Part shown: piece after piece, positions 46,010 to 64,000 of the stretch
How the letters are laid out: every line of letters begins with the position of its first letter
Numbering within the stretch: position 1 is the stretch's first letter
Assembly: GCA_965242695.1 (NCBI GenBank)
Contig: CBDESU010000001.1
Coordinates: forward strand, 544,001 to 608,000
Direction: 5' to 3'
Length of the DNA stretch: 64,000 nt
Origin: Cenarchaeum sp.
GTDB taxonomy: Archaea > Thermoproteota > Nitrososphaeria > Nitrososphaerales > Nitrosopumilaceae
The notes under the pieces: generated by a model
Told to the model about the DNA's origin: nothing
Seen by the model: only the letters and a program-made list of their open reading frames with translations
Databases searched by the model: none
Position numbers and translations under genes: made by a program

Positions 46010-46087
46010 GCCAGTCGCCAACCCTACCTAGCCTGAACGACTCTTCTCGGTGGTTGATGCACACGCCAAACACACTGAAAAAGCCGT

Positions 46088-46851: not shown

Positions 46852-46964
46852 TGGCAACTGCCGCCCACGCTCAATATAAGTTTACTCTTTTTTCACAATG
46901 CGCAACGCCTCCTGCCACGTAGGCGCACCAAATGCTTATGTGGGGGCCCCTGCGACGCGGCTTG

Positions 46965-47820: not shown

Positions 47821-48336
47821 ATGAGCGTAACAAGGCGGGAGCCGGCACAGGGCGGCGATCGCGGCCAGGCGGACGAGAAGAGGCGGCGCGACGCCGTCCC
47901 GTTCGACATGTTCCTCAAGCTGTGCCACATGGACGCGCTGGCCAGGCGCGACACTGCGTGGCTGGAGTGGTACAAGGGGTGGCTCAGGGATGTGCCCGAG
48001 AAAGGCCGCGAGGCCTACATGGCTAGGACAAAGGCCGAGTACGAGGGGCGCACGGGGGAGACGACCGGCGAGTGCCTGATTCGAATGCGCAAAGAGCGCA
48101 TCAAAAAATATCTTGCCGAGCGCCGCGCCGAGCGCCGCGCCGAGCGCCGCGCCGAGCGCCTTGACGAGAGCCTCACTGAGCGCATCGCCGAGCGCCTTGA
48201 CGAGAGCCTCACTGAGCGCATCGCCGAGCGTACTAGGAGCAATGTTGAGGCGGCGATCAACGAGCAGATCATGGTGGACAACTTTAGGATCTTTCGGGAC
48301 GAGTACATGGGCATGATGGGCCGCAGATCGTGCTAG
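47821..48336 (+). CDS. Hypothetical helical protein, tandem paralogue 2 (expanded repeat tract)
   Basis: Same protein with an extra AERR unit and two 'LDESLTERIAER' units. Confidence 0.72.
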   Translation: MSVTRREPAQGGDRGQADEKRRRDAVPFDMFLKLCHMDALARRDTAWLEWYKGWLRDVPEKGREAYMARTKAEYEGRTGETTGECLIRMRKERIKKYLAERRAERRAERRAERLDESLTERIAERLDESLTERIAERTRSNVEAAINEQIMVDNFRIFRDEYMGMMGRRSC

Positions 48337-48403
48337 GCTCCAACTGATTTGGCATTTTCTACCCGTGCAGTGCACGGTATGTCGTTGAATGAGCATCCTG
48401 CCG

Positions 48404-50893
48404 CTACGCGCCCCAGTCTCCTGATGCCCCGTATTGCTTCCGTTCTACGTCAGGATCGATTTCCACTGCGCGCTCGTATGCCCGTTGCGCCTCTGTATTC
48501 CATCCAGTCATGGACAGCGCCTCGGCTAGTCCAAGGTGCGCCATTGCGCTGCCGGGATCCAGCCCTGCTGCCCTGCGGTACGCCCGCGCGGCATCATCGT
48601 GCCGTCCCGCATCCGAGAGCGCCTCGGCCAGGCCTATCTGAATGCTCGCGCTGCCGGGATCCAGCCCTGCTGCCCTGCGGTACGCCCGCGCGGCATCTTC
48701 GTGCCGTCCCGCATCCGAGAGCGCCTCGGCCAGGCCTATCTGAATGCTCGCGCTGCCGGGATCCAGCCCTGCTGCCCTGCGGTACGCCCGCGCGGCATCT
48801 TCGTGCCGTCCCGCATCCGAGAGCGCCTCGGCCAGGCCTATCTGAATGCTCGCGCTGCCGGGATCCAGCCCGGCTGCCCTGCGGTACGCGGGGACGGCCT
48901 CCTCGGGCCTGCCTGCCCTTGAGAGCGCCTCGGCCAGGCCATGGTGAGCCCTTGCGCTGCCGGGATCCAGCTCGGCCGCCCTGCGGTACGCGGGGACGGC
49001 CTCCTCGGGCCTGCCTGCCCTTGAGAGCGCCTCGGCCAGGCCATGGTGAGCCCTTGCGCTGCCGGGATCCAGCTCGGCCGCCCTGCGGTACGCGGGGACG
49101 GCCTCCTCGAACCGCCCCGCGCTCAGGAGCGAGTCGGCCAGCCCGAGGTGCGCCTTCGCGCTGCCGGGATCCAGCTCGGCCGCCCTGCGGTACGCGGGGA
49201 CGGCCTCCTCGGGCCTGCCTGCCCTTGAGAGCGCCTCGGCCAGGCCATGGTGAGCCCTTGCGCTGCCGGGATCCAGCTCGGCCGCCCTGCGGTACGCGGG
49301 GACGGCCTCCTCGAACCGCCCCGCGCTCAGGAGCGAGTCGGCCAGCCCGAGGTGCGCCTTCGCGCTGCCGGGATCCAGCTCGGCCGCCCTGCGGTACGCG
49401 GGGACGGCCTCCTCGAACCGCCCCGCGCTCAGGAGCGAGTCGGCCAGCCCGAGGTGCGCCTTCGCGCTGCCGGGATCGATCTCGGCCGCCCTGCGGTACT
49501 CGGGAATCGCCGCCTCCCACTGGCCGAGGATTGCCAGCATTCCGCCCGCGCCGGCATGCGCCTCCGAGCTGCCGCCGTCAAGGTCGATCGCATCCCTGTA
49601 GTACGCCAGCGCCTTTTCGTGGCGGCCGGCCCTCGAGAGGACTCCGGCCAGCCCAAGGTGCGCCGATGCGCCGCCGAGCCTGTACCTGATGCGGGACGCC
49701 TTGTCGATCCGCACGCCGGATGAGGCGAGGCCGAGCCCCGTCCTTGCGCCCGCATCGATCGCCCCCTCGTACGAGGCGCCGGCCTCGACGTCCCTGCCCT
49801 CGGCCGCCCTTGCGTGCCCGAGCGCCACGTACGAGGCGGCATCGTCGGGGTCGATGCGTATCGCGTCTTCAAAGTGCCCCGCCGCCTCGCCGTGCCGGCC
49901 CTGCTCGGACAGGGACAGGCCCCGCGCCACGTGCGCCGACACGTCGTGGGGGTCGACCACCAGCGCGCCGTCGTACTCGGAGACCTCGAGCCTGCCGTCG
50001 GGCCCTCTTTGCATGCGCAGCGCGTACCCCCTGAACACGCGCGCGGGCGCGTACGTCGGGTCCAGCTCGATCGACCTTGCGTACAGCCTGCCGGCGTCCG
50101 CGTGGCGCCCGGCAAGCCGCGCTAGGTGCCCGAGCTCGAGATGTGCCAGGGGGTTGGCCGGGTCCAGCCGCGCGGCCTCCCGAAGCATGGCCTCGGCCTC
50201 GCCTGCCCGCCCCAGGTGGGCCAGCGAATGGCCGGCGCAGAGGTGCGCCCACACGCTCTCAGCCTCTTTCTTGATGTGGGCAAGGCACCGCCTCAGGGCG
50301 TCTTCGTACGCGGCGGCCGCGTCCCCGACGCGCCCGGCCATGTCCATGTGGCTGCCCTCCACGAGCCGCAGGGCCACAATGTCCGCGGGGCGGCCGTCGA
50401 ATATGGCGACCAGTACGGCATCGGTCGTCAGGCATGCGGCGACATCGTCGGGGATGCTGTGCGAGAGCGAGTGGACATGGGCATGCCGATCGTCGAGCAT
50501 GCCGCCGAGTCGGCGCGCGCCGCCCTCGCAGTCTAGCATCCGCAGCAGGGCGTCCAGCCCGCACTCGACGGCCGCATCCCTAGCGGCGCCCACGGTCAGG
50601 CGGACGTGCATTGCCGCATCGATGCGGGCGGCAGGGACCGATGCCTCTTCCCCGATGTCCTCTATGCGCACGTCCACGCTCCCGCCGCCGTCCCTCTTCC
50701 CGCGGTGCAGCTCCACCTCGCCCTGCAGGGCCTTTTCCACGATCGTTCCCGAGTCGCCCAGTATGGACCTCTTGTCGCGCGGGCGCGAGCCTCCCGAGTC
50801 TGCCTTGTTCTCGGCGGTCCTGACTAGGATGTCGTGGCGGCTCTGCAGCACCATGTGCGACGTGATCGGATACCGGTACCTCTTCACTGCCAT
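48404..50893 (-). CDS. TPR-repeat protein
   Basis: About ten near-identical 34-aa (102-bp) repeats 'A.AH.GLAEALS.AGR.EEAVPAYRRAAELDPGS' plus diverged N-terminal TPRs. Confidence 0.92.
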   Translation of the reverse strand: MAVKRYRYPITSHMVLQSRHDILVRTAENKADSGGSRPRDKRSILGDSGTIVEKALQGEVELHRGKRDGGGSVDVRIEDIGEEASVPAARIDAAMHVRLTVGAARDAAVECGLDALLRMLDCEGGARRLGGMLDDRHAHVHSLSHSIPDDVAACLTTDAVLVAIFDGRPADIVALRLVEGSHMDMAGRVGDAAAAYEDALRRCLAHIKKEAESVWAHLCAGHSLAHLGRAGEAEAMLREAARLDPANPLAHLELGHLARLAGRHADAGRLYARSIELDPTYAPARVFRGYALRMQRGPDGRLEVSEYDGALVVDPHDVSAHVARGLSLSEQGRHGEAAGHFEDAIRIDPDDAASYVALGHARAAEGRDVEAGASYEGAIDAGARTGLGLASSGVRIDKASRIRYRLGGASAHLGLAGVLSRAGRHEKALAYYRDAIDLDGGSSEAHAGAGGMLAILGQWEAAIPEYRRAAEIDPGSAKAHLGLADSLLSAGRFEEAVPAYRRAAELDPGSAKAHLGLADSLLSAGRFEEAVPAYRRAAELDPGSARAHHGLAEALSRAGRPEEAVPAYRRAAELDPGSAKAHLGLADSLLSAGRFEEAVPAYRRAAELDPGSARAHHGLAEALSRAGRPEEAVPAYRRAAELDPGSARAHHGLAEALSRAGRPEEAVPAYRRAAGLDPGSASIQIGLAEALSDAGRHEDAARAYRRAAGLDPGSASIQIGLAEALSDAGRHEDAARAYRRAAGLDPGSASIQIGLAEALSDAGRHDDAARAYRRAAGLDPGSAMAHLGLAEALSMTGWNTEAQRAYERAVEIDPDVERKQYGASGDWGA

Positions 50894-51229
50894 GCCGGGA
50901 GCGCGCATACGGCCCTATTTATGTATTATACCTATGTTGCATGGATATTTGACGTACAGGCTTGACGGGCGTCCGCGCGGCGCCCCGCGCCCCGCGGCGC
51001 GTGCGTCCGCACCGGCCGCACGCTCGCCTGCCATGCGGGCCTGTCACATTCCTGGGGCGCATCTAGGCGCGGGAGCGAGATCCCTGTGGCCCGCAACCGG
51101 GCGCGCCAGCAGCCTGCCGTGCAGGCGCGCGCATGATGCTCGCCGGCTGCGCCGGCGCGGGCCGGCGCATCCCAGCAGTTCGTTGTAGTTGCGCTCCGTG
51201 CCGGGCGGGGGCCCGGCCCTAGGCGGCCG

Positions 51230-51381
51230 ACGTTCCTGTGCCTGACACTGCGATTCTTCTGCCTTGCGTGCACTGCGGACGGCGCTTTTCTGGACCCCCT
51301 CATGCCGCCGTCCCTGCTTGGCATTAGTACCGGGATGCACTTCAGCTTCTTCCACACCATGGGAGGCGCGTGGGGGGCCAT
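51230..51381 (-). pseudogene. Truncated second copy of the aspartyl protease gene (5' part only)
   Basis: 'MAPHAPPMVWKKLKCIPVLMPSRDGGMRGSRKA' matches the start of the gene at 46513; similarity is lost before the DSG motif. Confidence 0.75.
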
Positions 51382-51719
51382 CACTCTACATGGAAGAACG
51401 TAGGCTCCTCGGGCCTCGCATAGATGTACTCCATAAAGGGCTCGCCCTTGCCCGCCTTCCACCCGTCCTGGTGGACGCGCCTCGGGTCCTTGCCGTGCGC
51501 CACGATCCCGCCGCCGGCCACGGCCAGCCATTCGCCCCTGTACTTTTCAAACTCCTCGGACTGCATCGATCTCAGGAACTCTAGGTTTCTTACGATGTCG
51601 TTGTCGATCCTCACTCCGGGGCCCTCGGCGGCCCACCCGCCGCACTCGTCCAGGGGATCGTACCCCGCACTGCGATCGCCGCTGTGGGTGTCCGCACCGG
51701 CCGCATCCTTGCCTGCCAT
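51381..51719 (-). CDS. DUF5678-like small protein, copy 2
   Basis: Near-identical to 46513..46851. Confidence 0.78.
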   Translation of the reverse strand: MAGKDAAGADTHSGDRSAGYDPLDECGGWAAEGPGVRIDNDIVRNLEFLRSMQSEEFEKYRGEWLAVAGGGIVAHGKDPRRVHQDGWKAGKGEPFMEYIYARPEEPTFFHVE

Positions 51720-52065
51720 TGGCGACTGCCGTCCAGCCCTCAATAAGAATTCACTGTTTTTTCACAATGCGCAACGGCGCAGGGGCGCGGCGGCCCTGCG
51801 GCCGCATCCTGGCGCGCCGGGGGTGGGTTGCGCGCAGCGCGTGCATCTGCGGCGCCGGCAGCGGGGATCACCCCTGCGATGCGCCGCCGCGCCCTGGCCG
51901 CTGGGCGCGGGGATGACCGCCCGTCCTCGGCCGCAGGCTCCGCCCGCCTGCCGGCCGCACGCGCAGGCGCGAGGCGGCCCGCTCCCCTCCCCCGTTCGCA
52001 TCCTGCATGTCCGCTACCGGGAGGTCTGCGATCGGCGGGCGCCGCCGCGCCCGCGGGCTATTCGA

Positions 52066-52383
52066 TCAACCCTTGCCGTACACTGCCTTGTGATCGCCTA
52101 CCCGTAGAAAGCGTATGCAATCGCCGCTGACACAGTACAGAATTCTGTATGATCTGCCCACCCTGCAAGCAAAGACATGGGTTGGCACTCCGTCGACGCG
52201 AATCCTTCCCTTGCTGTCCCTAGGATCCATGACATTTTCCGACATGAGCAAGTCGTCGACCGCCTGGTTTACTCGATCTACAATGTTTTTTCCCAAGCCG
52301 AGGCGCTGGCGCTCGAACTTTGGATCATACGCGGCTCTCCACCTTTTGCCCTCGCCCGATTGTCCTCTTGGTGTTTCCTTCAT
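52066..52383 (-). CDS. RelE/ParE-family toxin
   Basis: 'WRAAYDPKFERQ...VFACRVGRSYRILYCV...IRFLRVGDHKAVY'; ATGA overlap with the upstream gene. Confidence 0.8.
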   Translation of the reverse strand: MKETPRGQSGEGKRWRAAYDPKFERQRLGLGKNIVDRVNQAVDDLLMSENVMDPRDSKGRIRVDGVPTHVFACRVGRSYRILYCVSGDCIRFLRVGDHKAVYGKG

Positions 52384-53618
52384 GACTCGTCGCATCTCGT
52401 AGGGACTGTGGTCCCAGCCTCCCCTCTGATCTTGGCTACGAAGTCTGATCCATCCATCACGACCACCTCGCTGCTGGATGCGGACTCTTTTATGTCTGCC
52501 CATTCCTCGGCCGTCAGGGGAGGCGAGCGCATGCCGGACTCGATCGGAGTCTTTCCGCCCCCGCGCGGCTTGTGCGCTAGGCAGTACTCGATGTACCCGC
52601 GCGCGGATGCGTGGTCGGGATCCATTGCATGCCCGATGCCGGCAGGGGGCGGGCCGCGCTCGACGCGGGCCGCCTCCGAATCGCCGGCCCCGCCCTCGCG
52701 CGCATGCGAGTCCGGGCACCCTCCACCGTCCGGCTCGCCGCGGGATGCCCGCCGTCCGGCCCTGTCGATGCCGGCCATGGCCAGCTCGTGGTATTCGTCG
52801 ATTCCGATCGCCCGCTCGTAGGCCGACAGCGCCTCTGCATGCCGGCCGAGCGACTCGAGGGCCAGCCCGCGTCCCGCGTGCGCTGCCGCCGAGCCGCCGT
52901 CCAGCTCGACGGCCCTGTCAAAGGCGGGCAGCGCCTCTGCATGCCGGCCGAGCGACTCGAGGGCCAGCCCGCGTCCCGCGTGCGCTGCCGCCGAGCCGCC
53001 GTCCAGCTCGACGGCCCTGTCAAAGGCGGGCAGCGCCTCGGTGGGGCGTCCCGTGCCTGCCAGAACCCTTCCGCGAGCAGCATGGGTCGCGGCGGATTCC
53101 GGATCCAACCGGGCCGCCATTTTGCACGCCTCCAGTGCATCCTCGAGTCGTCCTGCGCCCGCTAGCGCAAAGGCATGCCCCGCGTGGACGTCCCCGTTGT
53201 CCGGCGCCAGTCGAATTGCCTCCTTGTACGCCACCACGGCGTCCTGGTAGCACCCGAGGCGCGTCACTGCGAGCGCGTAGTCCGCGTACGCCGGCGCGCA
53301 CTCTGGATCGCATGCGATGGCATCGCAGAATGCGTCTAGTGCCTCGCCGGGCTTTCCCAGGCCTGCAAGCGCCCTGGCGCGCCCCGCATGCGCCGGAGGA
53401 TAATCGGGGCATGCTCGCACTGCGGCGTTGCACGCGGCGAGCGCCTCGTCGTGCCGCCCGTACTTGTGCTGTAGGATGCCATGTATGGTCAGGATTGCCA
53501 CATCGGCAATGCCGCTTCCAAGCTGCTTGGAGTCCTGCACTGCCGAACCGTCCTCTTTTTCACCGGCCGGCGCATGGCGCCTACTGACCGGAGCTACTGT
53601 GACTACTGTGGGCCTCAT
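52380..53618 (-). CDS. TPR-repeat protein with a C-terminal antitoxin-like tail
   Basis: About seven TPRs, a GC-rich linker, then 'MDPDH...PPLTAEEWADIKES...MDGSDFVAKIRG'; stop overlaps the relE start. Confidence 0.8.
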   Translation of the reverse strand: MRPTVVTVAPVSRRHAPAGEKEDGSAVQDSKQLGSGIADVAILTIHGILQHKYGRHDEALAACNAAVRACPDYPPAHAGRARALAGLGKPGEALDAFCDAIACDPECAPAYADYALAVTRLGCYQDAVVAYKEAIRLAPDNGDVHAGHAFALAGAGRLEDALEACKMAARLDPESAATHAARGRVLAGTGRPTEALPAFDRAVELDGGSAAAHAGRGLALESLGRHAEALPAFDRAVELDGGSAAAHAGRGLALESLGRHAEALSAYERAIGIDEYHELAMAGIDRAGRRASRGEPDGGGCPDSHAREGGAGDSEAARVERGPPPAGIGHAMDPDHASARGYIEYCLAHKPRGGGKTPIESGMRSPPLTAEEWADIKESASSSEVVVMDGSDFVAKIRGEAGTTVPTRCDES

Positions 53619-53890
53619 TGAATTGCCGCCCCCATGCCTAGCGCACGGCGGGCACACTACCGTAGCGTATATAGCCGTTGCGCGCCCGCACGCAGGCCGC
53701 CCCCGTCCACACCCTGCGGCGCCATCTGGCCTGGGGTTGCATGATCGGCTAGGCCGCCGTGCCCCGCACATTCGGCAGGGGATGGAGGTGGACCTGCCCT
53801 GGCGCAGGGGGCGCCGGCGGCGCGGGCGCCCCGTCCCGCGCGCATGGAATCGCGGCAGGCCTTAAATACGCGCCCCCGTCCCGCGCGCGC

Positions 53891-54499
53891 ATGCGCCGCC
53901 AGGCCGCGCCGGTGCGCGGGTACGCATGCGTGCCGTACACGCACGACCACGACTCTGTGTCGCTCAAGGAGGACTGGGACCGCTCGCGCAACGTCGAGCG
54001 CATGCACTTTGTGACGGCCACGTTCTCTCCCGACTGCCTGCCGTACTTTGACTCCATATCGAACCACTACATACTCGCGCAGTTCCGTGACTGCACCCGC
54101 GCGCTGCGCGACATCGAGAGGCGCGGCCACGAAAAGGCCTCGTTCGTGTTCGGCATCGACGAGGACCTGTTCGAGCGCGAGGCGACGGGCGCCGTGAACT
54201 TTGTGTCGGTGTACTACCTAGAGTACGGCGAGACGGACGAGGACGTCGGCGAGGTGGCCTTTGTCATATCGCGCAAGGACAAGGTCGGCAGGGCGGGGGT
54301 GGGGCGCATGGACCTGCACTCGGCCACGCGCCGGTTCGACTTTCCGTACGCAGACCGGATAGTCGTGCTGGAGGTCTCGAGCGACAAGGGCCCGCAGAGC
54401 ATCAACAAGTACTGCGAAAAGACGCGGCGCGACGTGTGCCGCATCGGGATTACCATGACAAACCTGGTCAGCCTGTCGCTGCTCGAGCGGCTGAAGTGA
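53891..54499 (+). CDS. Hypothetical protein, probably conserved in Thaumarchaeota
   Basis: TATA 'ttaaata' about 25 bp upstream; strongly coding-like codon usage. Confidence 0.75.
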   Translation: MRRQAAPVRGYACVPYTHDHDSVSLKEDWDRSRNVERMHFVTATFSPDCLPYFDSISNHYILAQFRDCTRALRDIERRGHEKASFVFGIDEDLFEREATGAVNFVSVYYLEYGETDEDVGEVAFVISRKDKVGRAGVGRMDLHSATRRFDFPYADRIVVLEVSSDKGPQSINKYCEKTRRDVCRIGITMTNLVSLSLLERLK

Positions 54500-54673
54500 G
54501 CGGCTGAAGTGAGCGGCTGAAGTGAGCGGCTGAAGTGAGCGGCTGAAGTGAGCGGCTGAAGTGAGCGGCTGAAGTGAGCGGCTGAAGTGAGCGGCTGAAG
54601 TGAGCGGCTGAAGTGAGCGGCTGAAGTGAGCGGCTGAAGTGAGCGGCTGAAGTGAGCGGCTGAAGTGAGCGGC
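54485..54673 (+). repeat. 13-bp perfect tandem repeat GAGCGGCTGAAGT, 14 copies plus a 7-bp partial
   Basis: Counted directly; the first units include the last codons and stop of the upstream gene. Confidence 0.97.
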
Positions 54674-55225
54674 GCCGGCGGCCGCGGCGAACCGGCCGGC
54701 GCGGAGACGGCCGCCGGGGCGCCCGTGTGCGCGGCCATGCGGCGCGCCCTGGGGCATCGCGCGGCGCGCCTCGGCGCGGCTCGGGGGCCGTCCTGCCGGA
54801 GAGGCGGCCGGGGCGGCGCGCCAGGCGCCGTCGTCGGGAATGGAGGGCGGGCGCTCCCGGCCGAGTCAAAGTACGGGCGCGCGCGTGAAAGGGTCGGACC
54901 TGCGGGGAACCCGGGGGCCTGCCGGCCGGCTCGGGGCGGGCATGGGCATCGCCGTGCCCGGCGGGGGCGCGGGCGGGGCCGGAGGAGGGACCGCCATGAT
55001 CCCGCCGCGCCTGTACCTGCCGATGGGGAGGGGAAGGAGGAGGGGAGCGCGGCGCCCGCCCGCGGATCGGCGCAGGATGCCGCCGTGCCGCGCGGATGGC
55101 GCGGCGCCGCCCCAGCGCCGGCCTTTCCGGCCCGGCGGCGCCCCCCCCGGCGCCCCGCCCGCCAGCCTGCCGCTCCTCCCGCCTTTCCCAAAGGCCAAAA
55201 TAGGTTTGGCGGCGCCGGCCCGCGC

Positions 55226-56482
55226 ATGCAGAGGCCGACGTACGAGGATGTAGTGCGCGCCTCCGAGGCGCGGCGCCGGGGCGACGGCGGGGCGGACGAC
55301 ATCCGCCGCACCGACCTCGTGCACTCGCCCATGTTCAGCCGCATGACCGGCTCGGACGTGTACCTAAAGGCCGAGTACCGGCAAAAGACCGGCTCGTTCA
55401 AGATACGCGGCGCCTACTACAAGGTGCGCTCGCTCTCCGAGGCCGAGCGGCGCAACGGCGTCGTGGCCGCCTCGGCCGGCAACCACGCGCAGGGCGTCGC
55501 GTACGCGGCCTCGGCCGAGGGCATACCCTGCACGATAGTGATGCCGCAGTCGGCCTCGCCGGCAAAGGTGGCCGCCACGCGCGGGTACGGCGCGACCGTG
55601 GTCCTGCACGGCGCAAGCTACGAGGAGTCGTGGGCCAGGGCCCGCGAGATATCCGGGCGGACGGGCGCGACCATCGTCCACGCCTTCGACGACCCGCACG
55701 TTATAGCCGCCCAGGGGGTCGTCGGGCTGGAGATACTCGAGGACCTGCCCGACGTCGACGAGGTGTACGTGCCGATCGGCGGGGGCGGCCTGGCCGCCGG
55801 GGTGCTGATCGCGATAAAGGCGCGGCGCCCCGGCGTGCGGGTCGTCGGGGTCCAGTCCAGCTCGTTCCCGTCGATGAGGCGATCGCTCGACGCGGGCAGG
55901 CCTGTGCCGCTCGCCGCGGGCGGCGGCGGGGGCGGGCAGGCCCCGGCCAGGACCATAGCCGACGGCATATCCGTAAAGGCGCCCGGCGAGCTCACGTTCT
56001 CCATAATACGCGACATGATCGACGACATCGTGCTCGTCGACGACTCGGAGATCATAGAGGCCATGTTCCTGCTCATGGAGAGGATGAAGGCGGTGGTGGA
56101 GCCTGCCGGCGCCGTCGGGCTGGCGCACCTTCTCGCCGCAAGGCCCTCGCCGGGAAAGAAGGTGGCCGTCGTCCTGGCAGGCGGCAACGTCGACATGTAC
56201 CTGCTCGGGCAGATCGTCGACAAGGGGCTTGCGCGGATGGGGCGACTCCTAAAGGTCTTCATACTGCTGCCCGACCGGCCTGGCGCGCTCAAGGAGGTCG
56301 TCGACGAGATCACGTCGGCGCGCGCAAACATAGTGGAAGTGGTCCACGACCGGTTCAGCCGCGACATCGACGCGGGCTCGGCCGGGGTGACGCTCAGCCT
56401 AGAGACGGACGGGCGGGACAACGCCGAGGATCTTGTGCGCCGCCTCGAGGCGAGGGGAATACGGTTCCGGGTGATGACCTGA
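55226..56482 (+). CDS. ilvA: Threonine ammonia-lyase with a C-terminal ACT domain
   Basis: 'KAEYRQKTGSFKIRGA', 'ASAGNHAQG', 'PIGGGGL', 'LPDRPGAL'. Confidence 0.95.
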   Translation: MQRPTYEDVVRASEARRRGDGGADDIRRTDLVHSPMFSRMTGSDVYLKAEYRQKTGSFKIRGAYYKVRSLSEAERRNGVVAASAGNHAQGVAYAASAEGIPCTIVMPQSASPAKVAATRGYGATVVLHGASYEESWARAREISGRTGATIVHAFDDPHVIAAQGVVGLEILEDLPDVDEVYVPIGGGGLAAGVLIAIKARRPGVRVVGVQSSSFPSMRRSLDAGRPVPLAAGGGGGGQAPARTIADGISVKAPGELTFSIIRDMIDDIVLVDDSEIIEAMFLLMERMKAVVEPAGAVGLAHLLAARPSPGKKVAVVLAGGNVDMYLLGQIVDKGLARMGRLLKVFILLPDRPGALKEVVDEITSARANIVEVVHDRFSRDIDAGSAGVTLSLETDGRDNAEDLVRRLEARGIRFRVMT

Positions 56483-56651
56483 CGACTGCGGCCGCTCCGG
56501 CCTCCGCCTCCGCCTCCGCCTCCGCCTCGGCCGCGGGCTGCGGCGCCGCCCGCGCCCGCTCCGCGCCGCCCGCCGGCGCGCATGCGGCCGATCCCGGCCG
56601 GGCATTACGCCAGCCCGAAACGGTAATAGCGCGGGCCGATTGCCCGCGGGC

Positions 56652-57251
56652 ATGGCGGAAGGCAGAACCGCACTGGACGCGGACAACGCCGTGCAGGCGT
56701 CGATCCTGCTGTTCGCCGCGGACGGCGGCGAGCCGGCCGCAGGCCCGACCCAGATGCGGATGATGGTCTTTCTCCTGCTCAAAAAGGTCGGACCGGTTGC
56801 CGGCAGGGGGCTGGGGGGCACGGACGCGCACGCGCGCTGCGACAGCGGCGACGTCGATGCCGAGCTGCGGCGCCTCTCCGATGCGGGCGCCATCCGCTGC
56901 GGCCGCTTGGGGATCGAGGCCACCGGGGCGGGAAGGGATGCCGCCGATGCGCTAGCGGAGCGGCTCGGCAAGCGCGCCGCGACCATACTGCGCAACGCCA
57001 AGGAATTCTACAACAGCATGACCGACGACGAGGCGCTCGTATATGCCCGCGCGGCGTACCCCGGTGCGGCAGGGGGGGATGCCGGGCGCATTCAAAAAGG
57101 ACGAGCAAAAGACGGTGGAGGATGTCCTGATCGGCCTCACGGGAAGGGGGGGGGGGTGATCAGCTCGTCGCATGCCGCCCGGTTCCTGCGCCGAGACCTG
57201 CTGGATGTCATGCGTATGATGAGCGCGGCCGCCATACCGGTGTTCCAGTAG
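56652..57251 (+). CDS. YwgA/Panacea-like wHTH + UPF0175-like HTH protein, copy A1 (locally frameshifted between two poly-G tracts)
   Basis: Paralogue of the five copies downstream; 'KTVEDVLIGLTG' lies out of frame between G7 (57072) and G11 (57146). Confidence 0.75.
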   Translation: MAEGRTALDADNAVQASILLFAADGGEPAAGPTQMRMMVFLLLKKVGPVAGRGLGGTDAHARCDSGDVDAELRRLSDAGAIRCGRLGIEATGAGRDAADALAERLGKRAATILRNAKEFYNSMTDDEALVYARAAYPGAAGGDAGRIQKGRAKDGGGCPDRPHGKGGGVISSSHAARFLRRDLLDVMRMMSAAAIPVFQ

Positions 57252-57383
57252 GCGCGGCGCGGTGGGCGGCAACGGCATGCCGCCCGCTCCTCCACTGATC
57301 GTCCAAATGCGTGCGGGCCTCGCTCTTGGTGCCGCATCGCGCCGGATCAAAATGGTTATATGTATAACCAAACTGGTTGCGGC

Positions 57384-57974
57384 ATGGCGAAAAGCGAAGC
57401 CGTCCTGGACGTGGACGGCGCCGTGCAGGCGTCGATCCTCCTGCTCGCCGCGGACGGCGCCGAGCCGGTCGCAGGCCCGACCCAGATGCGGATGATGGTC
57501 TTTCTCCTGCTCAAAAAGGTCGGACCGGTTGCCGGCAAGGGGCTGGGGGGCACGGACGCGCACGCGCGCTGCGACAGCGGCGACGTCGACGCAGAGCTGC
57601 GGCGCCTCTCCGATGCGGGCGCCATCCGCTGCGGCCGCTCGGGGATCGAGGCCACCGGGGCGGGCCGCAAGGCCGCCGCCGCGCTCTCGGAGGGGCTCGA
57701 CGAGCGCGCCGCGGCCATACTGCGCAACACCAAGTGGTTCTACAACGGCATGACCGACACCGAGGCGCTCGTCTACACCCGCGCGGCGTACCCCGGCGCT
57801 GCGGGGGTGAAGGGCATGCACGAACCCGTTGAGCAAAAGGCGGTCCAAGACATCCTGATCGGACTAGTGGGCAAGGGGGTGATCACCACGGGGCACGTGG
57901 CAGAGTTGCTGGGGCGGGATCGTGCGGATGCCATGCGCATGGTGAGCGCGGCCGGCATACCGGTGTTCAACTAG
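57384..57974 (+). CDS. YwgA/Panacea-like + UPF0175-like protein, copy A2
   Basis: 'ASILLLAA..EPVAGPTQMRMMVFLL...SGDVDAELRRL..IEATGAGR...YP' plus 'GVITTGHVAELLG..ADAMRMVSAAGIPVF'. Confidence 0.8.
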   Translation: MAKSEAVLDVDGAVQASILLLAADGAEPVAGPTQMRMMVFLLLKKVGPVAGKGLGGTDAHARCDSGDVDAELRRLSDAGAIRCGRSGIEATGAGRKAAAALSEGLDERAAAILRNTKWFYNGMTDTEALVYTRAAYPGAAGVKGMHEPVEQKAVQDILIGLVGKGVITTGHVAELLGRDRADAMRMVSAAGIPVFN

Positions 57975-58039
57975 GCGCGGGGGCGGCAGGGCGACGAATC
58001 TTCGGGGATGCCGCCAGGGAAAGCCCGCGCGCGGCCGGC

Positions 58040-58548
58040 GTGCTGGTGTTTGACGCATCGACACCAATCGGAACATCCGACATGCGGCGCCCGGACCTGT
58101 TCGATCGGTTCAGGGATCTGGGTTATGATCTGGCCGTCCCGTCGCATGTGGAGCAGAAGGAACTAGTCGATGCAGATGTCAGGGCAATGATCAGCGGCCT
58201 GCTGGATCGCGGCACCATCCGCATCACTCACTCGAATAGACGCAGGGAAGTGCTTGATCTTGGGTCTGATCTTCAAGGAGTGGGGCTCGGGGAGTGCGAT
58301 GCCATGCTGACATGCTAAAGATGCGGCGGAGGGCCGCTAGGGCACAATGCGTACTGGATGACAAGGCGGCAAGGGCGGCGGCAAGGCGGATTGGAGTTGC
58401 GCATATCGGGCTTACAGGCCTGCTAGGCGAGCCCGCAACCGCCGGCCTGGTGTCGGCGCGGGATATGGCCTGCATAGTGGCGGCGCTGCGCGGAACAAAC
58501 TTCCGCATCGGCGACGACCTGCTCGACGGGCTGGTAGGGGGCGCTTGA
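58040..58548 (+). pseudogene. DUF3368/COG2405-type PIN-domain toxin, copy P1, with a 1-nt frameshift at ~58315
   Basis: 'VLVFDAS...VPSHV..E...GLGECDA' then 'CVLDDKAARAAA...GLTGLL...LRGTNFRI' in a second frame. Confidence 0.8.
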
Positions 58549-58829
58549 TGCAAGGGCGGGAACTGCGCCCCGAATCCGCCTTCTGGTAGGGAGCCGCAAG
58601 CCGCCCCGCCTGGCAATGCCGTGCCGCAGGCTGGCGCATGGGCGCAGGCGGCACGCATCGCGGCAGGGATCCTGCAGTGTCCAAATCACGCGAGCCGTGC
58701 ATGTTCACCCGCATGCCCCCTGCAGGGATTCTGCCCCCGCGGCTTGGCGCAGGCGGACCGTGCGCCTGGCGCGCCGGGAATCCGACCCGGCCCAAAACGA
58801 CTATAAGGGCGGGCAGGGCGGCCTAGGCC

Positions 58830-59420
58830 ATGCCTGGAAGCGGGGCCGCCCTGGATGTGGACAACGACGTCCAGGCGTCGATCCTGCTGCTCGCAGCAGA
58901 CGGCGCCGAGCCGGTCGCAGGCCCGACCCAGATGCGGATGATGGTCTTTCTCCTGCTCAAAAAGGTCGGACCGGTTGCCGGCAAGGGGCTGGGGGGCACG
59001 GACGCGCACGCGCGCTGCGACAGCGGCGACGTCGATGCCGAGCTGCGGCGCCTCTCCGATGCGGGCGCCATCCGCTGCGGCCGCTCGGGGATCGAGGCGA
59101 CCGAGGCGGGCCGCAAGGCCGCCGCCGCGCTAGGGGAGCAGCTTGACGAGCGCACCGCGGCCATACTGCGCAACACCAAGTGGTTCTACAATGGCATGAC
59201 CGACGACGAGGCGATCGTCTACACCGGCGCGGCGTACCCCGACGCCGCAGGAGGGCAGGACGAGCGCGGAACGGCCGGGCAGAAGGCTCTCGAAGACGTC
59301 CTGATCGGCCTGATTGGGAAGGAGAAGTTTACCTCTGCGCACGCGGCCCGGCTGCTGCGCCGGAGCAGGGCGGAAGTCATGCGCATGGCGAGCGCGGCCG
59401 GCATACCGGTGTTCAACTAG
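58830..59420 (+). CDS. YwgA/Panacea-like + UPF0175-like protein, copy A3
   Basis: Paralogue; C-terminus 'KFTSAHAARLLRRSRAEVMRMASAAGIPVFN'. Confidence 0.8.
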   Translation: MPGSGAALDVDNDVQASILLLAADGAEPVAGPTQMRMMVFLLLKKVGPVAGKGLGGTDAHARCDSGDVDAELRRLSDAGAIRCGRSGIEATEAGRKAAAALGEQLDERTAAILRNTKWFYNGMTDDEAIVYTGAAYPDAAGGQDERGTAGQKALEDVLIGLIGKEKFTSAHAARLLRRSRAEVMRMASAAGIPVFN

Positions 59421-59572
59421 GCGTAGCGCGAGGGCGACGGCGGAAGATGGCCACCCCCTGTGCCGCCCGCCCGGCCACTGATCGCACTCCCTCAACGCAC
59501 TCGGGCCGCCCGTCTGGCGCCCGCATCATGTGGATCAAAACAGTTATAGGCATAGGGACACCGGTTGCGGGC

Positions 59573-60163
59573 ATGGCGGAAAGCGAAACCGTCGTAGACG
59601 CGGACAACGCCGTGCAGGCGTCGATCCTGCTGTTTGCCGCCGAGGGCGGCGAGCCTGTCGCGAGCCCGACCAGGATGAGAATGATGGTATTCTACCTGCT
59701 GAAGCACATGGGGCCGATTGCGGGCAGGGGCCTAGGTAGCACGGACGCGCACGCGCGCTACGACAGCGGCGACGTCGACGCCGAGCTGCGGCGCCTCGCC
59801 GGTGCGGGCGCCGTGCGCTGCGGCAGTACGGGGATCGAGGCGACAGAGTCGGGAAGGGCTGCCGTCGATGCGCTAGCGGAGCGGCTCGGCAAGCGCGCCG
59901 CGACCATGCTGCGCAACACCAAGGAGTTCTACAACAGCATGACCGACGACGAGGCACTCGTGTATGCCCGCGCGGCGTACCCCGGCGCGGCAGGGCGGCA
60001 GGATGCGCCCGGAAGTGACGAGCCAAAGGTTGTGGAGGACGTCCTGATCGGCCTGGTGGGGAAAGGGGTGATCAGCTCGTCGCACGCGGCCCGCCTGCTG
60101 CGCAAGGACCTGCTCGACGTCATGCATATGATGAGCGCCGCCGGCATACCGGTGTTCCAGTAG
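59573..60163 (+). CDS. YwgA/Panacea-like + UPF0175-like protein, copy A4
   Basis: Paralogue; 'gttatagg' upstream; C-terminus 'VISSSHAARLLRKDLLDVMHMMSAAGIPVFQ'. Confidence 0.8.
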   Translation: MAESETVVDADNAVQASILLFAAEGGEPVASPTRMRMMVFYLLKHMGPIAGRGLGSTDAHARYDSGDVDAELRRLAGAGAVRCGSTGIEATESGRAAVDALAERLGKRAATMLRNTKEFYNSMTDDEALVYARAAYPGAAGRQDAPGSDEPKVVEDVLIGLVGKGVISSSHAARLLRKDLLDVMHMMSAAGIPVFQ

Positions 60164-60293
60164 GGCGGCGGCGAGCAACCTCCTGTGCCGCCCGCCGCGC
60201 CGCTGATCGCACCAAATGCGCGCAAGCCTCGCACTTGGCGCCCGCACCGCGTCGAACCAAAATGGTTATATGTACAACCAGACTGGTTGCAGC

Positions 60294-60875
60294 ATGGCGA
60301 AAAGCGAGGCCGTCCTGGACGTGGACAACGCCGTGCAGGCGTCGATCCTCCTGTTCGCCGCCGAGGGCGGCAAACCGGTCGCGGGCCCGACCAAGATGCG
60401 AATGATGGTGTTCTACCTGCTGAAGAACGTGGACTCGATTGCCGGCAGGGGACTCGGCGGCACGGACGCACACGTGCGCTGCGACAGCGGCGACGTCGAC
60501 GCCGAGCTGCGGCGCCTCGCCGGTGCGGGCGCCGTGCGCTGCGGCGGCCCGGGGATCGAGGCCACCGAAGCGGGAAGGGTTGCCGCCGATGCGCTCGCAC
60601 AGGGGCTTGACGAGCGCACCGCGACCATACTGGCCAACACCAAGGAGTTCTACAACGACTTGACCGATGACGATGCGCTCGTCTACACCCTTGCCGCGTA
60701 TCCCGACGCTAGGGGCCCAGACGGGAGCGAAAAGGGCGAGGATGCGGAAGATGTCCTGATCGGTTTGGTAAGGAAAGGCAAGATCACCACGGGGCGCATG
60801 GCCGCGCTGCTGCGCTGTGACCGTGCGGACGCCATGCGCATGGCGAGCGCGGCCGGCATACCGGTGTTCCAGTAG
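60294..60875 (+). CDS. YwgA/Panacea-like + UPF0175-like protein, copy A5
   Basis: Paralogue; upstream region matches that of A2. Confidence 0.8.
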   Translation: MAKSEAVLDVDNAVQASILLFAAEGGKPVAGPTKMRMMVFYLLKNVDSIAGRGLGGTDAHVRCDSGDVDAELRRLAGAGAVRCGGPGIEATEAGRVAADALAQGLDERTATILANTKEFYNDLTDDDALVYTLAAYPDARGPDGSEKGEDAEDVLIGLVRKGKITTGRMAALLRCDRADAMRMASAAGIPVFQ

Positions 60876-60949
60876 CGCGGCGCGGGGGCGACAGGGCCAC
60901 GAACCCTCCCAAGAGACGACAAAGTAAGCTTGCGCACGGCGCAACGCTG

Positions 60950-61546
60950 GTGTTTGACGCATCAACACCGATTGGAATATCGGACATGCGGCGCCCTGAC
61001 CTGTTCGACCGGATCGTGGCCCTTGGCTATGACCTGGTTATTCCATCGCACGTAGAGCGCGACGAGCTAGTCCGCCCGGAAGTCAGGGCGATGATCGGTG
61101 GCCTGCTGGATCGGGGGGCCATCCGCACCGTGCACATGAACAGGCGGAGAGATGTCCTTGATTTCATGATGAAGTTTCACAAGATCGGGATTGGAGAGAG
61201 TGATGCCATCCTGACGTGCATGAAGATGCACCTCGAGGGGGTGGAGGCGTACTGCGTGCTATAGTCCCGAGCATAAGTTCCTGACCCTTTTATGTGCATC
61301 GATTAGGCGTCGATGCAGCAAAAAGAGGGTCAAGGACATGTGCTCGTGACTATAGACGAGACGGATGCCAGGGCGGCGGCAAAGCGAATTGGCATCGGGT
61401 ATGTCGGACTAGCGGGACTGCTCGGCGAGCTCGCATCCGCCGGACTGGTGTCGGCGCAGGACATGCGCGGCATAGTCGCAGCGCTGCGCGGGACGAATTT
61501 CCGCATCAGCGACGATCTACTCGACGGACTTGTGGGGGGCATCTGA
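60950..61546 (+). pseudogene. DUF3368-type PIN-domain toxin, copy P2, interrupted by a MITE
   Basis: 'VFDAS...GIGESDA...YCVL' [insert] 'DETDARAAA...LRGTNFRI'; both halves in the same frame. Confidence 0.85.
61262..61352. mobile_element. 91-bp palindromic MITE with TA target-site duplication (IS630/Tc1-mariner-like)
   Basis: Left arm tagtcccgagcataagttcctgaccctttt..tgcatcga is an imperfect reverse complement of the right arm tcgatgca..aagagggtcaaggacatgtgctcgtgacta; TA at 61260-61261 and 61353-61354; removal restores GTG CTA GAC GAG (VLDE). Confidence 0.85.
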
Positions 61547-61867
61547 TACGATGGCAGGGGACGTCCAGATTTTCCCGGGTGCGGTACAGCGAATTGCTTC
61601 GCCGGCGCCCTGCGCCGCGCCGTAAGGCAGATGCGGCGGCACAGGGAGGCGCGCTTCACGGCAGTGCACCGGTAGCATGCGGGCTTCAAAAACCATTCCT
61701 CCTCGTCCGCCTCCCGGTTCTGCCCTGCGGCCCGCAGCGTGTGCACCTGGCCTTGGACGGCGAGGCGCCGGCGCCGCTCTCAGCGCGCGCCCGTGGGCCC
61801 AAGGCATCGCGGTCCATGCGCGCGGCATGCCTGCCCGAAACGGTCATAAGGGCGGGCGGGCCGCGGC

Positions 61868-62458
61868 GTGGCAGAAAGCGGAACCGTCCTTGACGTGGGC
61901 AACGCCGTGCAGGCGTCGATCCTCCTGTTCGCCGCCGAGGGCGGCGAGCCGGTCGCGAGCCGGACTAGGATGAGAATGATGGTGTTCTACCTGCTGAAGC
62001 ACATGGGGCCGATTGCGGGCAGGGGCCTTGGCGGCACGGATGCGCACGCGCGCTACGACAGCGGCGACGTCGACGCCGAGCTGCGGCGCCTTTCCGATGC
62101 GGGCGCCGTGCGCTGCGGCCGCCCGGGTATCGAGGCCACCGAAGCGGGAAGGGTTGCCGCCGATGCGCTAGCGGAGCGGCTCGGCAAGCACGCCGCGACC
62201 ATGCTGCGCAACGCCAAGGAATTTTTCAACAGCATGACAGACGGCGAGGCGCTCGTGTATGCCCGCGCGGCGTACCCCGGCGCGGCAGGGAGGCAGGATG
62301 CGCCCGAAGGGGACGAGCCGGAGGTTGTGGAAGACGTTCTGTTCGGCCTGATAGACAGGGGGATAATCAGCACGGGGCATGCCGCTAGGCTGCTGAACCG
62401 GAGCAGGGAGGACGTCATGCGCATGGTGAGCGCGGCCGGCATACCGGTGCTCAACTAG
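61868..62458 (+). CDS. YwgA/Panacea-like + UPF0175-like protein, copy A6
   Basis: Paralogue; upstream spacer homologous to that of A3. Confidence 0.8.
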   Translation: MAESGTVLDVGNAVQASILLFAAEGGEPVASRTRMRMMVFYLLKHMGPIAGRGLGGTDAHARYDSGDVDAELRRLSDAGAVRCGRPGIEATEAGRVAADALAERLGKHAATMLRNAKEFFNSMTDGEALVYARAAYPGAAGRQDAPEGDEPEVVEDVLFGLIDRGIISTGHAARLLNRSREDVMRMVSAAGIPVLN

Positions 62459-62720
62459 GCGCGGCGCGGGGGCGGCAGGGCGACGAATCCTCGGGGATGC
62501 TGCCAAGGGCAGTCCGCGCGCGCCGGCGTGCCCCGGTGCGGCCGGGGGGCGGAAGGGCGCGCACGGCATGGATGGGCAGAGGTCGGCGCAGGCTGTCCTG
62601 TTCTGACCGGTAGGAGGGGCAAGATCGCCACGGGACGCGCCGCCAGGCCGCCGCGCCGGGGCCGCGGGGACGCCGTGCGCACGGCGAGCGCCGCCGGCGC
62701 TCTGCCGGGCGCCACACGGG
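62459..62720 (+). pseudogene. Remnant: PIN-gene leader joined to a decayed UPF0175 3' fragment
   Basis: 62470-62531 matches 57980-58042; 'ggcaagatcgccacgggacgcgccgcc...acggcgagcgccgccggc' matches the 3' end of the A copies. Confidence 0.65.
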
Positions 62721-62787
62721 GCGGCGATCCTGTCCGGCCCCGCCCGCCCCGCGAACGCTCTAAATACGCGCGGGCCGCACGCCGGCC

Positions 62788-63078
62788 GTGTTCGCCATCG
62801 ACAGGCGCCTGCTCGCCGGCGGCGCGGCCATGATCGCCGCCGGCATCGCCATATCGCTGCACCTGTCGGCCTCGATGCCGGTCGGCACGCCTGGCATGAC
62901 CGAAGAGGCAGCGGCCGAGCTGATACTCGACCAGCGCGCGAACCGCGACATGGGGATGCTCGCGACCCTGCTAGCCGGCGTCGGGTTCCTGCTCGTCCTG
63001 GTCAGCTTTGGGGCGAGGCGCAGGCGCCGGGCGGGGGGCGCCCCGGCGGTGCGCGCGCAGGAGCGGCCGGCCGAGTAG
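62788..63078 (+). CDS. Small two-TM membrane protein
   Basis: TATA 'taaata' upstream; two hydrophobic helices flanking 'TPGMTEE'. Confidence 0.75.
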   Translation: MFAIDRRLLAGGAAMIAAGIAISLHLSASMPVGTPGMTEEAAAELILDQRANRDMGMLATLLAGVGFLLVLVSFGARRRRRAGGAPAVRAQERPAE

Positions 63079-63091
63079 CGGGCCCGTTCGA

Positions 63092-64000
63092 CTAGAGCCT
63101 CCTGAGTATCCCAAAGTGCGTGTCGCGCTGCGCGGCCGGCCTGCCGATCTCGCGCGCCATCGAGGCGAGCCCCTCCAGCGACGACTCGGCCGGCTTGCCG
63201 GCGGCCCGGTATATCTCCTCGGAGAATGCGGTGCCGACCAGGTCGTTGCCGCCGGACGCGAGTGCGACCTGGGCGAGCTTTCTGCCGTACGCGACCCAGT
63301 ACACGGATATGTTGTCTAGGGCGCCGGCGAGCATGAGGCGCGAGAGCGCGACGACCCTCAGGTCGTAGAGCGACGAGCACTCGCGCTCGACCATCCCCTT
63401 CTGCTCGAGCTCTGTATTGTCCAGGCTGAACCTGAGCGGAATGAACGTGATGAACCCGCCCGTGCGCTCCTGCAGGGCGCGTATGCGCGCGAGGTGGTCG
63501 ACGACGTGCTCTATCCGTTCTACGTGCCCGTACAGCATCGTCGCGTTGCTGCGTATGCCGAGCGAGTGCGCCTGCTCCATCGTGTCTAGCCACTGCTCGC
63601 CGGTGCACTTGCCGCGCGCGACGGCCGGGCGCACGGACGGGTCGAGTATCTCGGCGCCGCCGCCTGGCATCGAGTCGAGGCCGGCGTCGCGCAGGCGGGC
63701 GAGGACCTCGCGGACGGTGTTCTTTGTGAGCCTGGCGATGAAGAAGACCTCGGCCGCGGTGAACGCCTTTACGTTCATTGCAGGCTGCGAGCGCTTTATG
63801 GCGCGCATCATATTCTCGTAGTAGTCTAGGCCGAGGCGGGGGTGGAACCCGCCGACTATGTGGACCTCGGTCGCCCCCATGCGGCTTGCGGCGGCGACGC
63901 GCGCCTCCATCTGCTCGGGCGTGAGCGTGTACGCATCGTCGTTTCCCTCGCGCCGGTAGAACGCGCACATCTGGCAGCTTGCCGCGCACACGTTCGTGTA
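63092..64000 (-). CDS. mqnE: CofH/MqnE-family radical SAM enzyme, probably aminofutalosine synthase; 5' end outside the window
   Basis: 'TNVCAASCQMCAF', 'EVHIVGG', 'MPGGGAEI', 'SNATMLYGH', 'FITFIPLRF'. Confidence 0.85.
   Translation of the reverse strand, partial: YTNVCAASCQMCAFYRREGNDDAYTLTPEQMEARVAAASRMGATEVHIVGGFHPRLGLDYYENMMRAIKRSQPAMNVKAFTAAEVFFIARLTKNTVREVLARLRDAGLDSMPGGGAEILDPSVRPAVARGKCTGEQWLDTMEQAHSLGIRSNATMLYGHVERIEHVVDHLARIRALQERTGGFITFIPLRFSLDNTELEQKGMVERECSSLYDLRVVALSRLMLAGALDNISVYWVAYGRKLAQVALASGGNDLVGTAFSEEIYRAAGKPAESSLEGLASMAREIGRPAAQRDTHFGILRRL

Follow-up and report, generated by a model that had tools for sequence, protein, structure and literature searches.

Positions 56652-62720 of a 64-kb window from a Cenarchaeum sp. 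genome (64,000 nt of contig CBDESU010000001.1; "the window" always means this whole stretch) hold a tandem array of toxin-antitoxin-like genes. From its open reading frames (ORFs) we identified six paralogous genes, here called A1 to A6, all on the + strand and encoding proteins of 193-199 aa with 65-76% identity to A1, together with two broken PIN-domain genes, in the order A1-A2-PIN1-A3-A4-A5-PIN2-A6. An original prediction made from the sequence alone had given the same order (A-A-PIN-A-A-A-PIN-A) for six ~195-aa paralogues and two PIN genes, and the ORFs confirm it. Its list of variants of the C-terminal helix-turn-helix (HTH) of the A proteins is likewise the one found here. The features of the array are as follows.

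56652-57251, + strand: A1, 199 aa, open; HTH type SSSH, as in A4
57384-57974, + strand: A2, 196 aa; HTH type TTGH; a 65-nt spacer leads to PIN1 directly downstream
58040-58318, + strand: N-terminal piece of PIN1, 92 aa, with its acidic residues kept; the TAA at 58316-58318 is made by a 1-nt frameshift
58294/58312-58548, + strand: C-terminal piece of PIN1 in the +1 frame, the DUF3368-like helical part; its ATG at 58312 overlaps the stop codon of the first piece
58830-59420, + strand: A3, 196 aa; HTH type TSAH; no PIN behind it
59573-60163, + strand: A4, 196 aa; HTH type SSSH; no PIN behind it
60294-60875, + strand: A5, 193 aa; HTH type TTGR; a 74-nt spacer leads to PIN2 directly downstream
60950-61261 (ORF to 61264), + strand: N-terminal piece of PIN2, 104 aa, running into an insert that opens with an in-frame TAG
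61260-61354, no strand assigned: palindromic insert in PIN2 resembling a miniature inverted-repeat transposable element (MITE), with a 91-nt core at 61262-61352 and a TA duplication at its flanks
61313/61355-61546, + strand: C-terminal piece of PIN2, in the same frame as the N-terminal piece, with a DUF3368 match
61868-62458, + strand: A6, 196 aa, starting with GTG; HTH type STGH; the leader of a PIN now lost lies behind it
62459-62531, + strand: remnant of a third PIN, 73 nt comprising the A-PIN spacer and the PIN start codon GTG (62528-62530)

The array contains two copies of a colinear A-A-PIN-A unit of ~2.9-3.0 kb, which are 78-79% identical (56646-58324 matches 59567-61229, 58369-58560 matches 61367-61558, and 58787-59436 matches 61830-62474), in agreement with the twice-present unit of ~2.9 kb predicted earlier. 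Two pairs of copies that do not hold corresponding positions, A2/A3 and A4/A6, are closer to each other than the two units are (86% identity each). PIN linkage is seen for A2 (PIN1), A5 (PIN2), and A6 (the remnant), and the other 3 of 6 copies, A1, A3, and A4, have no PIN; A2 and A5 are the presumed cognate antitoxins of PIN1 and PIN2, respectively. The remnant that had been predicted is present, but as a 73-nt spacer with a PIN start codon and without any PIN coding part. Along 69 nt it shares 90% identity with the A2-PIN1 spacer, and past its start codon tblastn found no PIN coding similarity and the best hmmsearch E value was 0.79. Since the spacer and the PIN start codon are kept and PIN similarity stops there, a third PIN has been deleted after A6. 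All six A copies are open, as had been stated; however, A1 is partly scrambled by indels of +4 nt and +5 nt in G runs, with ~24 residues of its first C-terminal helix read out of frame.

Each A gene is preceded by a motif resembling an archaeal B recognition element and TATA box (BRE/TATA-like). This 13-nt motif, CRAAAYRRYNATA, lies 23 nt ahead of the A1 start and is found at six places.

56616-56628, + strand: motif before A1
57348-57360, + strand: motif before A2
58793-58805, + strand: motif before A3
59536-59548, + strand: motif before A4
60258-60270, + strand: motif before A5
61836-61848, + strand: motif before A6

These are exactly the 6 matches in the 64-kb window, each 19-24 nt 5′ of an A start, against 0.06 expected for a pattern that was derived from the same six sites. 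Every A gene would be transcribed from a promoter of its own, as a leaderless mRNA. No such motif precedes the PINs, which start 65-75 nt after A2 and A5 and are probably co-transcribed with the upstream A. The upstream regions fall into two classes (A2, A4, and A5 versus A1, A3, and A6), and before A2 and A5 the TATA-like box is covered by a 7-nt inverted repeat. The A-PIN spacers fold no better than shuffled sequence (z +0.66 to +0.97).

Broken PIN genes in the assembly and in public metagenomes

The pieces of both PIN genes can still be assigned to a family. A PIN hidden Markov model (HMM) scores both PIN1 pieces (E 4.5e-40 and 1.3e-33), and the C-terminal piece of PIN2 reaches E 8.4e-6 and 26.0 bits against PF11848, whose cut-off is 27.3; PF11848 is present in 11 of 12 PIN homologues. 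Two intact PIN relatives, P0219 and P0225, match the PADLOC model PDC-S70 (E 2e-12 and 9.5e-10). A structure model of P0225 with a predicted local distance difference test score (pLDDT) of 86.2 had only PIN-domain structures as its top Foldseek matches (Nob1, PAE2754, SSO1118 2mdt, and VapC; probability 0.99-1.0, template modelling score 0.41-0.63), at E values of only 0.014-0.05. E and D columns are invariant in the PIN alignment and the matching residues are kept in both window PINs. By these matches, we assign the window PINs to the DUF3368/COG2405 type.

That both toxin genes are broken, as predicted, is borne out, and the two breaks differ in kind. In PIN1 a 1-nt frameshift leaves the rest of the gene to continue in the +1 frame. 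In PIN2 an insertion adds 93 nt in frame and brings three in-frame stops. The insert is a palindrome of ~96 nt that is present in 10 copies in the genome at 87-100% identity with 2-nt (mostly TA) flanking duplications; on the two contigs of the genome, C1 and C2, the other copies lie at C1:117655, 359562, 709842, 967364, and 1115841 and at C2:433990, 558070, 837440, and 1019804. It is predicted to fold into a long hairpin (-60.3 kcal/mol, z -12.3), paired changes on both arms preserve the hairpin among the copies, and the element has no Rfam match. An archaeal bulge-helix-bulge intron in PIN2 was considered and rejected, the insert being a 10-copy palindrome with 2-nt duplications.

The breaks appear to be young. 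P0218, a PIN of 155 aa on another metagenome contig, is 98% and 97% identical to the two PIN2 pieces and continuous through the insertion site; the other related PINs listed have 143-180 aa. Between PIN1 and PIN2, the ratio of nonsynonymous to synonymous divergence (dN/dS) is 0.25 at a dS of 0.83 over 166 codons. This ratio, together with the acidic residues kept in both genes, argues that both PINs were functional for most of their history. The intact P0218 at 97-98% identity and the same ratio also argue that the toxins were lost recently, by three different routes, with antitoxin decay now begun, and that the toxin breaks are confined to some strains.

We compared the array with contigs assembled from public sequencing runs. 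Contigs of four runs from three studies reproduce pieces of it; in most of the pieces listed, those of runs X1, X2, and X4 differ by no more than two substitutions, and these best-matching runs may be the source sample. Run X6, from another study, represents a diverged strain with 7 substitutions in 1192 nt, and it too has the PIN1 frameshift: in 4 of 4 runs, contigs cross this site with no indel. X4 shows a further 1-nt gap at 58072 at a depth of 5.8, which may be an error. The region of the A1 indels (57011-57262) is covered without difference by contigs of X1 and X2. Both sides of the PIN2-MITE junction are covered in two runs, by contigs that end inside the element. The read depth of the MITE is 4-8 times that of its flanks, and each of the 4 runs has many loose ends there, at 61258-61261 and 61354-61355. 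The raised depth suggests that there are many copies of the element in the sponge metagenome runs. Contigs that end in the insert, raised depth, and loose ends are as expected for a multi-copy element. No public contig spans the whole array, so that the gene order rests on the assembly itself.

The A proteins and their relatives

A structure model of A3 (pLDDT 87.5) consists of a winged helix at residues ~13-104, two helices at 107-135, a loop, and a three-helix HTH at 148-189. The fusion of a UPF0175-like HTH to an N-terminal winged-helix module, which the original prediction had proposed, is supported by the family as a whole. In the window the UPF0175 model (PF03683) matches 4 of 6 copies weakly (E 0.027-0.15, 12.2-14.6 bits) and 2 of 6 not at all; among the relatives gathered by a deep profile search it matches 62 of 85 family members at E≤0.01, with a best E value of 3.7e-15. 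Additionally, the PADLOC model of the small PDC-S70 partner matches A C-termini (E 1.7e-4 and 6.1e-4). Homology of the A C-terminal part to UPF0175-type HTHs is thereby supported at the family level. At 193-199 aa, against the 75 positions of the UPF0175 Pfam model, the A proteins are not small stand-alone HTH proteins, whereas the UPF0175 members of Makarova et al. 2009 are called "small proteins" there. Their C-terminal HTH is the most diversified part, again as anticipated, and the toxin-antitoxin-like identity of the locus, a UPF0175-type protein with a DUF3368 PIN, is upheld.

The closest characterised relative that we found for the N-terminal module is the C-terminal toxin-binding domain of DarG. 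In all six window copies, MRMM and RCDS/RYDS stand where six distant A paralogues in the same genome have LQK...GPYS/GPHS, which confirms that the usual LQK..GPYS signature has been replaced. A broad family profile matches DarG chain 7yk3_B (E 1.3e-5) over the motif QKxxYF...GPYSE (DarG residues ~180-255). In a structural comparison of the A3 model with 48,161 chains, the top match is 7yk3_D (Z 8.4, 142 residues aligned, root-mean-square deviation 4.8), with generic winged-helix regulators close behind (Z 8.0-8.3, ~80 residues aligned); Foldseek of the same model against the PDB returned nothing at E<0.27. The NCBIfam DarG model matches 3 of 16 proteins at ~1e-3, all canonical family members, and the PADLOC DarG model matches a canonical paralogue (E 2.6e-5) and neither of the two window copies scanned. 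No A copy has a Pfam macrodomain match.

The N-terminal domain had originally been read as Panacea/DUF4065 (PF13274), and this identity is not supported. Of the 12 A-family copies that the genome has, PF13274 matches not one at E≤1, and among the family it gives 3 weak matches out of 85 at E≤0.01 (best 9.4e-4). The genome has a true Panacea/SocA gene at C2:567619-567945 (locus L023; PF13274 65.2 bits), and hhalign of the A family against it gives a probability of 1.7%. The DarG C-terminal domain is the better comparison.

For the two-domain A family, 595 cluster representatives were found at E≤1e-3, of which 184 reach E≤1e-10, and the ESM Atlas clusters closest to A are 92-100% archaeal. In a sample of the phylum, 44 of 301 genomes have an A-family match. 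We fetched 30 loci from this sample, comprising 15 two-domain A genes, 11 with the N-module only, and 4 fragments. A PIN lies directly downstream on the same strand in 9 of the 15 two-domain loci (8 of 14 outside the window's genome), and in none of the 11 N-module-only loci. The stand-alone N-modules (~140-150 aa, at L043-L049, L052, L053, L056, and L057) have neither a UPF0175 domain nor a PIN neighbour. A separate observation is that a canonical A paralogue matches PADLOC PDC-M19A at E 2.6e-15; it also has a weak match to the end of a model for type I restriction specificity subunits.

Within the same genome, the six distant A paralogues have 29-35% identity. An intact PIN of ~160 aa follows 4 of the 6, a decayed PIN follows 1 of 6, and the last has no PIN. 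A second small array on the minus strand (C1:115889-120803) contains three canonical A paralogues and two intact PINs of ~160 aa; it adjoins amoA (C1:121535-122083) and has a MITE copy in one intergenic spacer. In a genome of the same genus, G004, a single A-PIN pair of the window's subfamily lies elsewhere in the genome with both genes broken. Several homologues each are carried by related metagenome contigs of 34,666, 30,125, 16,068, 13,375, and 5,118 bp; on the one of 16,068 bp there are four A clusters and one PIN cluster. Profile scans of genome and metagenome contig collections with an alignment of the six copies found no relative. A complex prediction of A5 with P0218, run without controls, scored 0.01 against a mark of 0.32 and speaks neither for nor against binding.

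The genome that holds the window is 3.89 Mb in 2 contigs with 67-68% G+C; its closest genomes are mostly 1-2-Mb genomes from one family. It encodes an archaeal amoA (E 2e-118), and sponge metagenomes are among the public runs that contain the window stretch, so the host is a sponge-associated ammonia-oxidising archaeon. No RNA run was among the public runs listed for this stretch. Similarity to G004 stops at window position 56579, ~70 nt 5′ of A1, and the array therefore begins at a synteny break. In none of 4 same-genus genomes is the gene that lies downstream of the array, a radical-SAM gene, found inside 12-13 kb of the ilvA-like gene, and a clean empty site is therefore not definable. No tRNA gene lies at 45000-64000, and there is thus no sign of a tRNA-linked island; Rfam has nothing at E≤0.1 across 54000-64000. 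Two simple repeats lie ahead of the array: a perfect tandem repeat at 54485-54673, with 14.5 copies of a 13-nt unit (GAGCGGCTGAAGT) at 100% identity 5′ of a threonine-dehydratase-like gene, and (CTCCGC)x6 at 56495-56532, immediately ahead of the array.

Recombination, selection, and the state of the array

The two parts of the A proteins have different histories. For the winged helix, dS is 0.10-0.16 among A1-A3, 0.23-0.31 among A4-A6, and 0.33-0.55 between these halves of the array, and the N-terminal module of A3 is 91% identical to that of A2. For the C-terminal part, dS is 0.36-1.03 overall with 43-66% identity, and 0.50-0.73 within A1-A3. The domain trees conflict: the N part of P0021, a homologue on another contig, clusters with A6, its C part with A4. 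Every C-terminal type of the window except that of A3 recurs nearly unchanged on other contigs with N parts that group differently. The A2 type is identical in P0002 and P0004, the A6 type is identical in P0034, and the A4 type recurs with one to several substitutions in P0007, P0008, P0010, P0011, P0018, P0020, P0021, and P0029. Because the trees of the two parts disagree and the C-terminal types recur with other N parts, we conclude that recombination shuffles a few discrete C-terminal types onto homogenised N-terminal modules.

A rearranged form of the array is also seen in the public runs. A 3757-nt contig of X6 joins 60844 to 62428 and yields an A5/A6 hybrid without PIN2, with a shorter side of 255 nt. 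We rejected further joints as A4-less or extra-unit forms (59415 to 60264, 59421 to 60264, 59449 to 60178, 59451 to 60176, and 62466 back to 60264), the sides of which are 39-68 nt; these have 90% likeness and may stem from repeats or other strains.

The A copies were also checked, domain by domain, for the neutral decay (dN/dS near 1) that would have counted against the original prediction. By a crude pairwise measure, dN/dS is 0.27-0.55 for the winged helix, apart from one pair at 0.92 where dS is merely 0.10, and 0.41-0.93 for the C-terminal part. This range of 0.27-0.93 indicates purifying to relaxed selection on the sequences and neither neutral decay nor positive selection.

We think it probable that this is a type II toxin-antitoxin-like array of an archaeal family that was amplified in tandem and recombines, that its toxins were put out of action recently, and that it is now early in decay. 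Its basic module would be a two-gene operon of A followed, after 65-75 nt, by a DUF3368/COG2405 PIN nuclease (PDC-S70). A would be a two-domain antitoxin-like protein that binds and neutralises its own PIN; it starts with a winged-helix module like the C-terminal domain of DarG, continues with two helices, and ends in a three-helix HTH of the UPF0175 type. Neutralisation would probably be via the UPF0175 domain, since this is the sole partner domain that always accompanies this PIN type, and A probably represses its own promoter too. In the sponge-symbiont lineage, duplication of the module has produced an array in which additional A genes have putative promoters of their own, the N-terminal modules being homogenised through unequal crossing-over and gene conversion, and the C-terminal HTH staying in a few discrete types common to strains. 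All three toxins have been disabled recently, PIN1 by the 1-nt frameshift, PIN2 by the MITE, and the third PIN by deletion, and the decay of A1 has begun. Because the toxins were disabled recently and A1 is decaying, the disarmed array looks early in decay and not selected for a new role. The original prediction had instead seen a toxin-antitoxin locus repurposed as an antitoxin bank or as a family of regulators, and this repurposing is not supported here: the breaks are recent (P0218 at 98%, dN/dS 0.25), A1 is scrambled, and other A-PIN pairs are intact. As the toxin breaks are recent, open A frames say little about selection after toxin loss.

Several observations weigh against this decaying-array reading. 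A genes outnumber PINs in the window (6:2, or 6:3 with the remnant) and apparently on related contigs too, and from strain to strain the C-terminal HTH types hardly vary. A plain toxin-antitoxin model explains neither the surplus of separately promoted A genes nor this near-invariance, which suggests that there may be selection on the extra A copies. The six window copies lie under the Pfam gathering score of UPF0175 (12-15 bits versus 27.9). DarG is not matched at E≤10 by a profile made up mostly of the window's subfamily, in keeping with a subfamily in which MRMM and RCDS/RYDS have taken the place of the shared motif. Lastly, the PIN-UPF0175 pairing is itself a prediction in the passages of the literature that describe it (PMC2701414, PMC5499597).

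The surplus of A genes could have another cause. It is conceivable, though we doubt it, that the array is an antitoxin bank or anti-addiction array, in which surplus A types are kept by selection to neutralise related PINs and the resident toxins are dispensable; the targets could tentatively be placed among the PIN toxins of the cell, of viruses, or of mobile elements. The excess of A over PIN, the promoter-like motif ahead of every A, and C-terminal types that stay nearly invariant across strains as the N parts recombine are all consistent with such a bank. So is the loss of toxins in three independent ways here, plus a deletion in X6. Four other intact PINs of the same family in the genome are possible targets, and orphan antitoxin-like counter-defence is documented for DarTG in phages, in the part of PMC11825919 that concerns it. 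However, the breaks are too recent for the open A frames to prove selection, A1 is already scrambled, and the C-terminal dN/dS of 0.41-0.93 looks relaxed and not strongly constrained. An equally speculative picture is that of a combinatorial immunity bank, in which a two-headed antitoxin, made of a DarG-like toxin-binding module and a UPF0175 HTH, comes in discrete types that recombination shuffles onto homogenised N-terminal modules. Each under its own promoter, these types would guard the symbiont against a spectrum of PINs (PDC-S70) from its own genome, viruses, or mobile elements, and the resident toxins would be expendable and repeatedly lost. If this were true, surplus antitoxin arrays would be a selected trait of archaeal symbionts and not debris.

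We find it improbable that the A family consists mainly of DNA-binding transcription regulators with diversified recognition helices, each variant acting on its own or on other promoters, to which the PINs are accessory. Both A domains are predicted to have DNA-binding-type folds, variation is concentrated in the HTH helices, and the two upstream classes and the inverted repeat ahead of A2 and A5 could serve such regulators. However, a PIN lies downstream in 9 of the 15 two-domain loci and never beside N-module-only relatives, and the closest characterised relative of the N-module binds a toxin and not DNA, going by the title of Deep et al. 2023 as given in PMC12170906. Finally, errors of long-read assembly in a repetitive region, which the original prediction had named as a risk, are a very unlikely source of the array or of the PIN breaks: there is no single public contig across the array and the A1 indels sit in G runs, but four runs from three studies match its pieces, the PIN1 frameshift is in 4 of 4 runs including the diverged strain of X6, and two runs each cover the A1 indel region and both sides of the PIN2-MITE junction.

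As a decaying toxin-antitoxin array, the locus illustrates how such modules may multiply, exchange single domains by recombination, and shed the toxins before the antitoxins, here by frameshift, MITE, and deletion. If surplus antitoxin genes are selected, the array bears on the purpose of chromosomal and orphan antitoxins.

Comparison with known systems

The array is a predicted toxin-antitoxin pair in an unusual form, amplified and recombining, and not a wholly new system. The pair of UPF0175 and COG2405 is a predicted toxin-antitoxin pair in the relevant passages of Makarova et al. 2009 (PMC2701414) and Matelska et al. 2017 (PMC5499597); UPF0175 is a predicted antitoxin in the former and is reported in the latter exclusively beside COG2405. 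The window locus has the same PIN subfamily and an HTH immediately upstream on the same strand, and is likewise of a mostly archaeal kind; function is predicted for the literature pair and for the window locus alike. The two differ in that UPF0175 makes up the last quarter of the window protein, which has 196 aa and an added winged helix, and in that the window module is amplified with surplus A genes and its PINs are broken.

The DUF3368 PIN corresponds to PADLOC PDC-S70, described in the part of PMC12988326 that treats it as an uncharacterised, archaea-enriched defence candidate, among the commonest in Archaea. There it is taken as a single-gene candidate, whereas the window PIN has a fused A partner. 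Our results show that in Nitrososphaerota the PDC-S70 PIN comes with a fused partner made of a DarG-C-terminal-like module and UPF0175. We found no description of this fusion in the literature searched, which did not extend to supplementary tables.

DarG of the DarTG system (Mycobacterium tuberculosis, PDB 7yk3) is the best sequence and structural match of the N-module, and its domain neutralises the toxin by direct binding, as the title of Deep et al. 2023 states (via PMC12170906). Unlike DarG, the window A has no macrodomain and its neighbour is a PIN instead of DarT; moreover, the shared motif is replaced in the window subfamily and the structural Z is tied with that of generic winged-helix regulators. 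The fusion joins two antitoxin types thought unrelated, which suggests a common toxin-binding mechanism.

Panacea/SocA resembles A in being a winged-helix-like antitoxin domain that goes with many different toxins and is often fused to an HTH, according to the relevant part of Kurata et al. 2022 (PMC8832971), and the automatic name of one ESM Atlas cluster close to A is "putative DUF4065 domain-containing protein". However, the extra HTH is N-terminal in the Panacea proteins described there and C-terminal in A. A last likeness, drawn by description, is to paREP6 of Pyrobaculum, a COG2886-like family for which PMC2701414 describes, in the passage concerned, a lineage-specific PIN-linked expansion, also in Thermoproteota.

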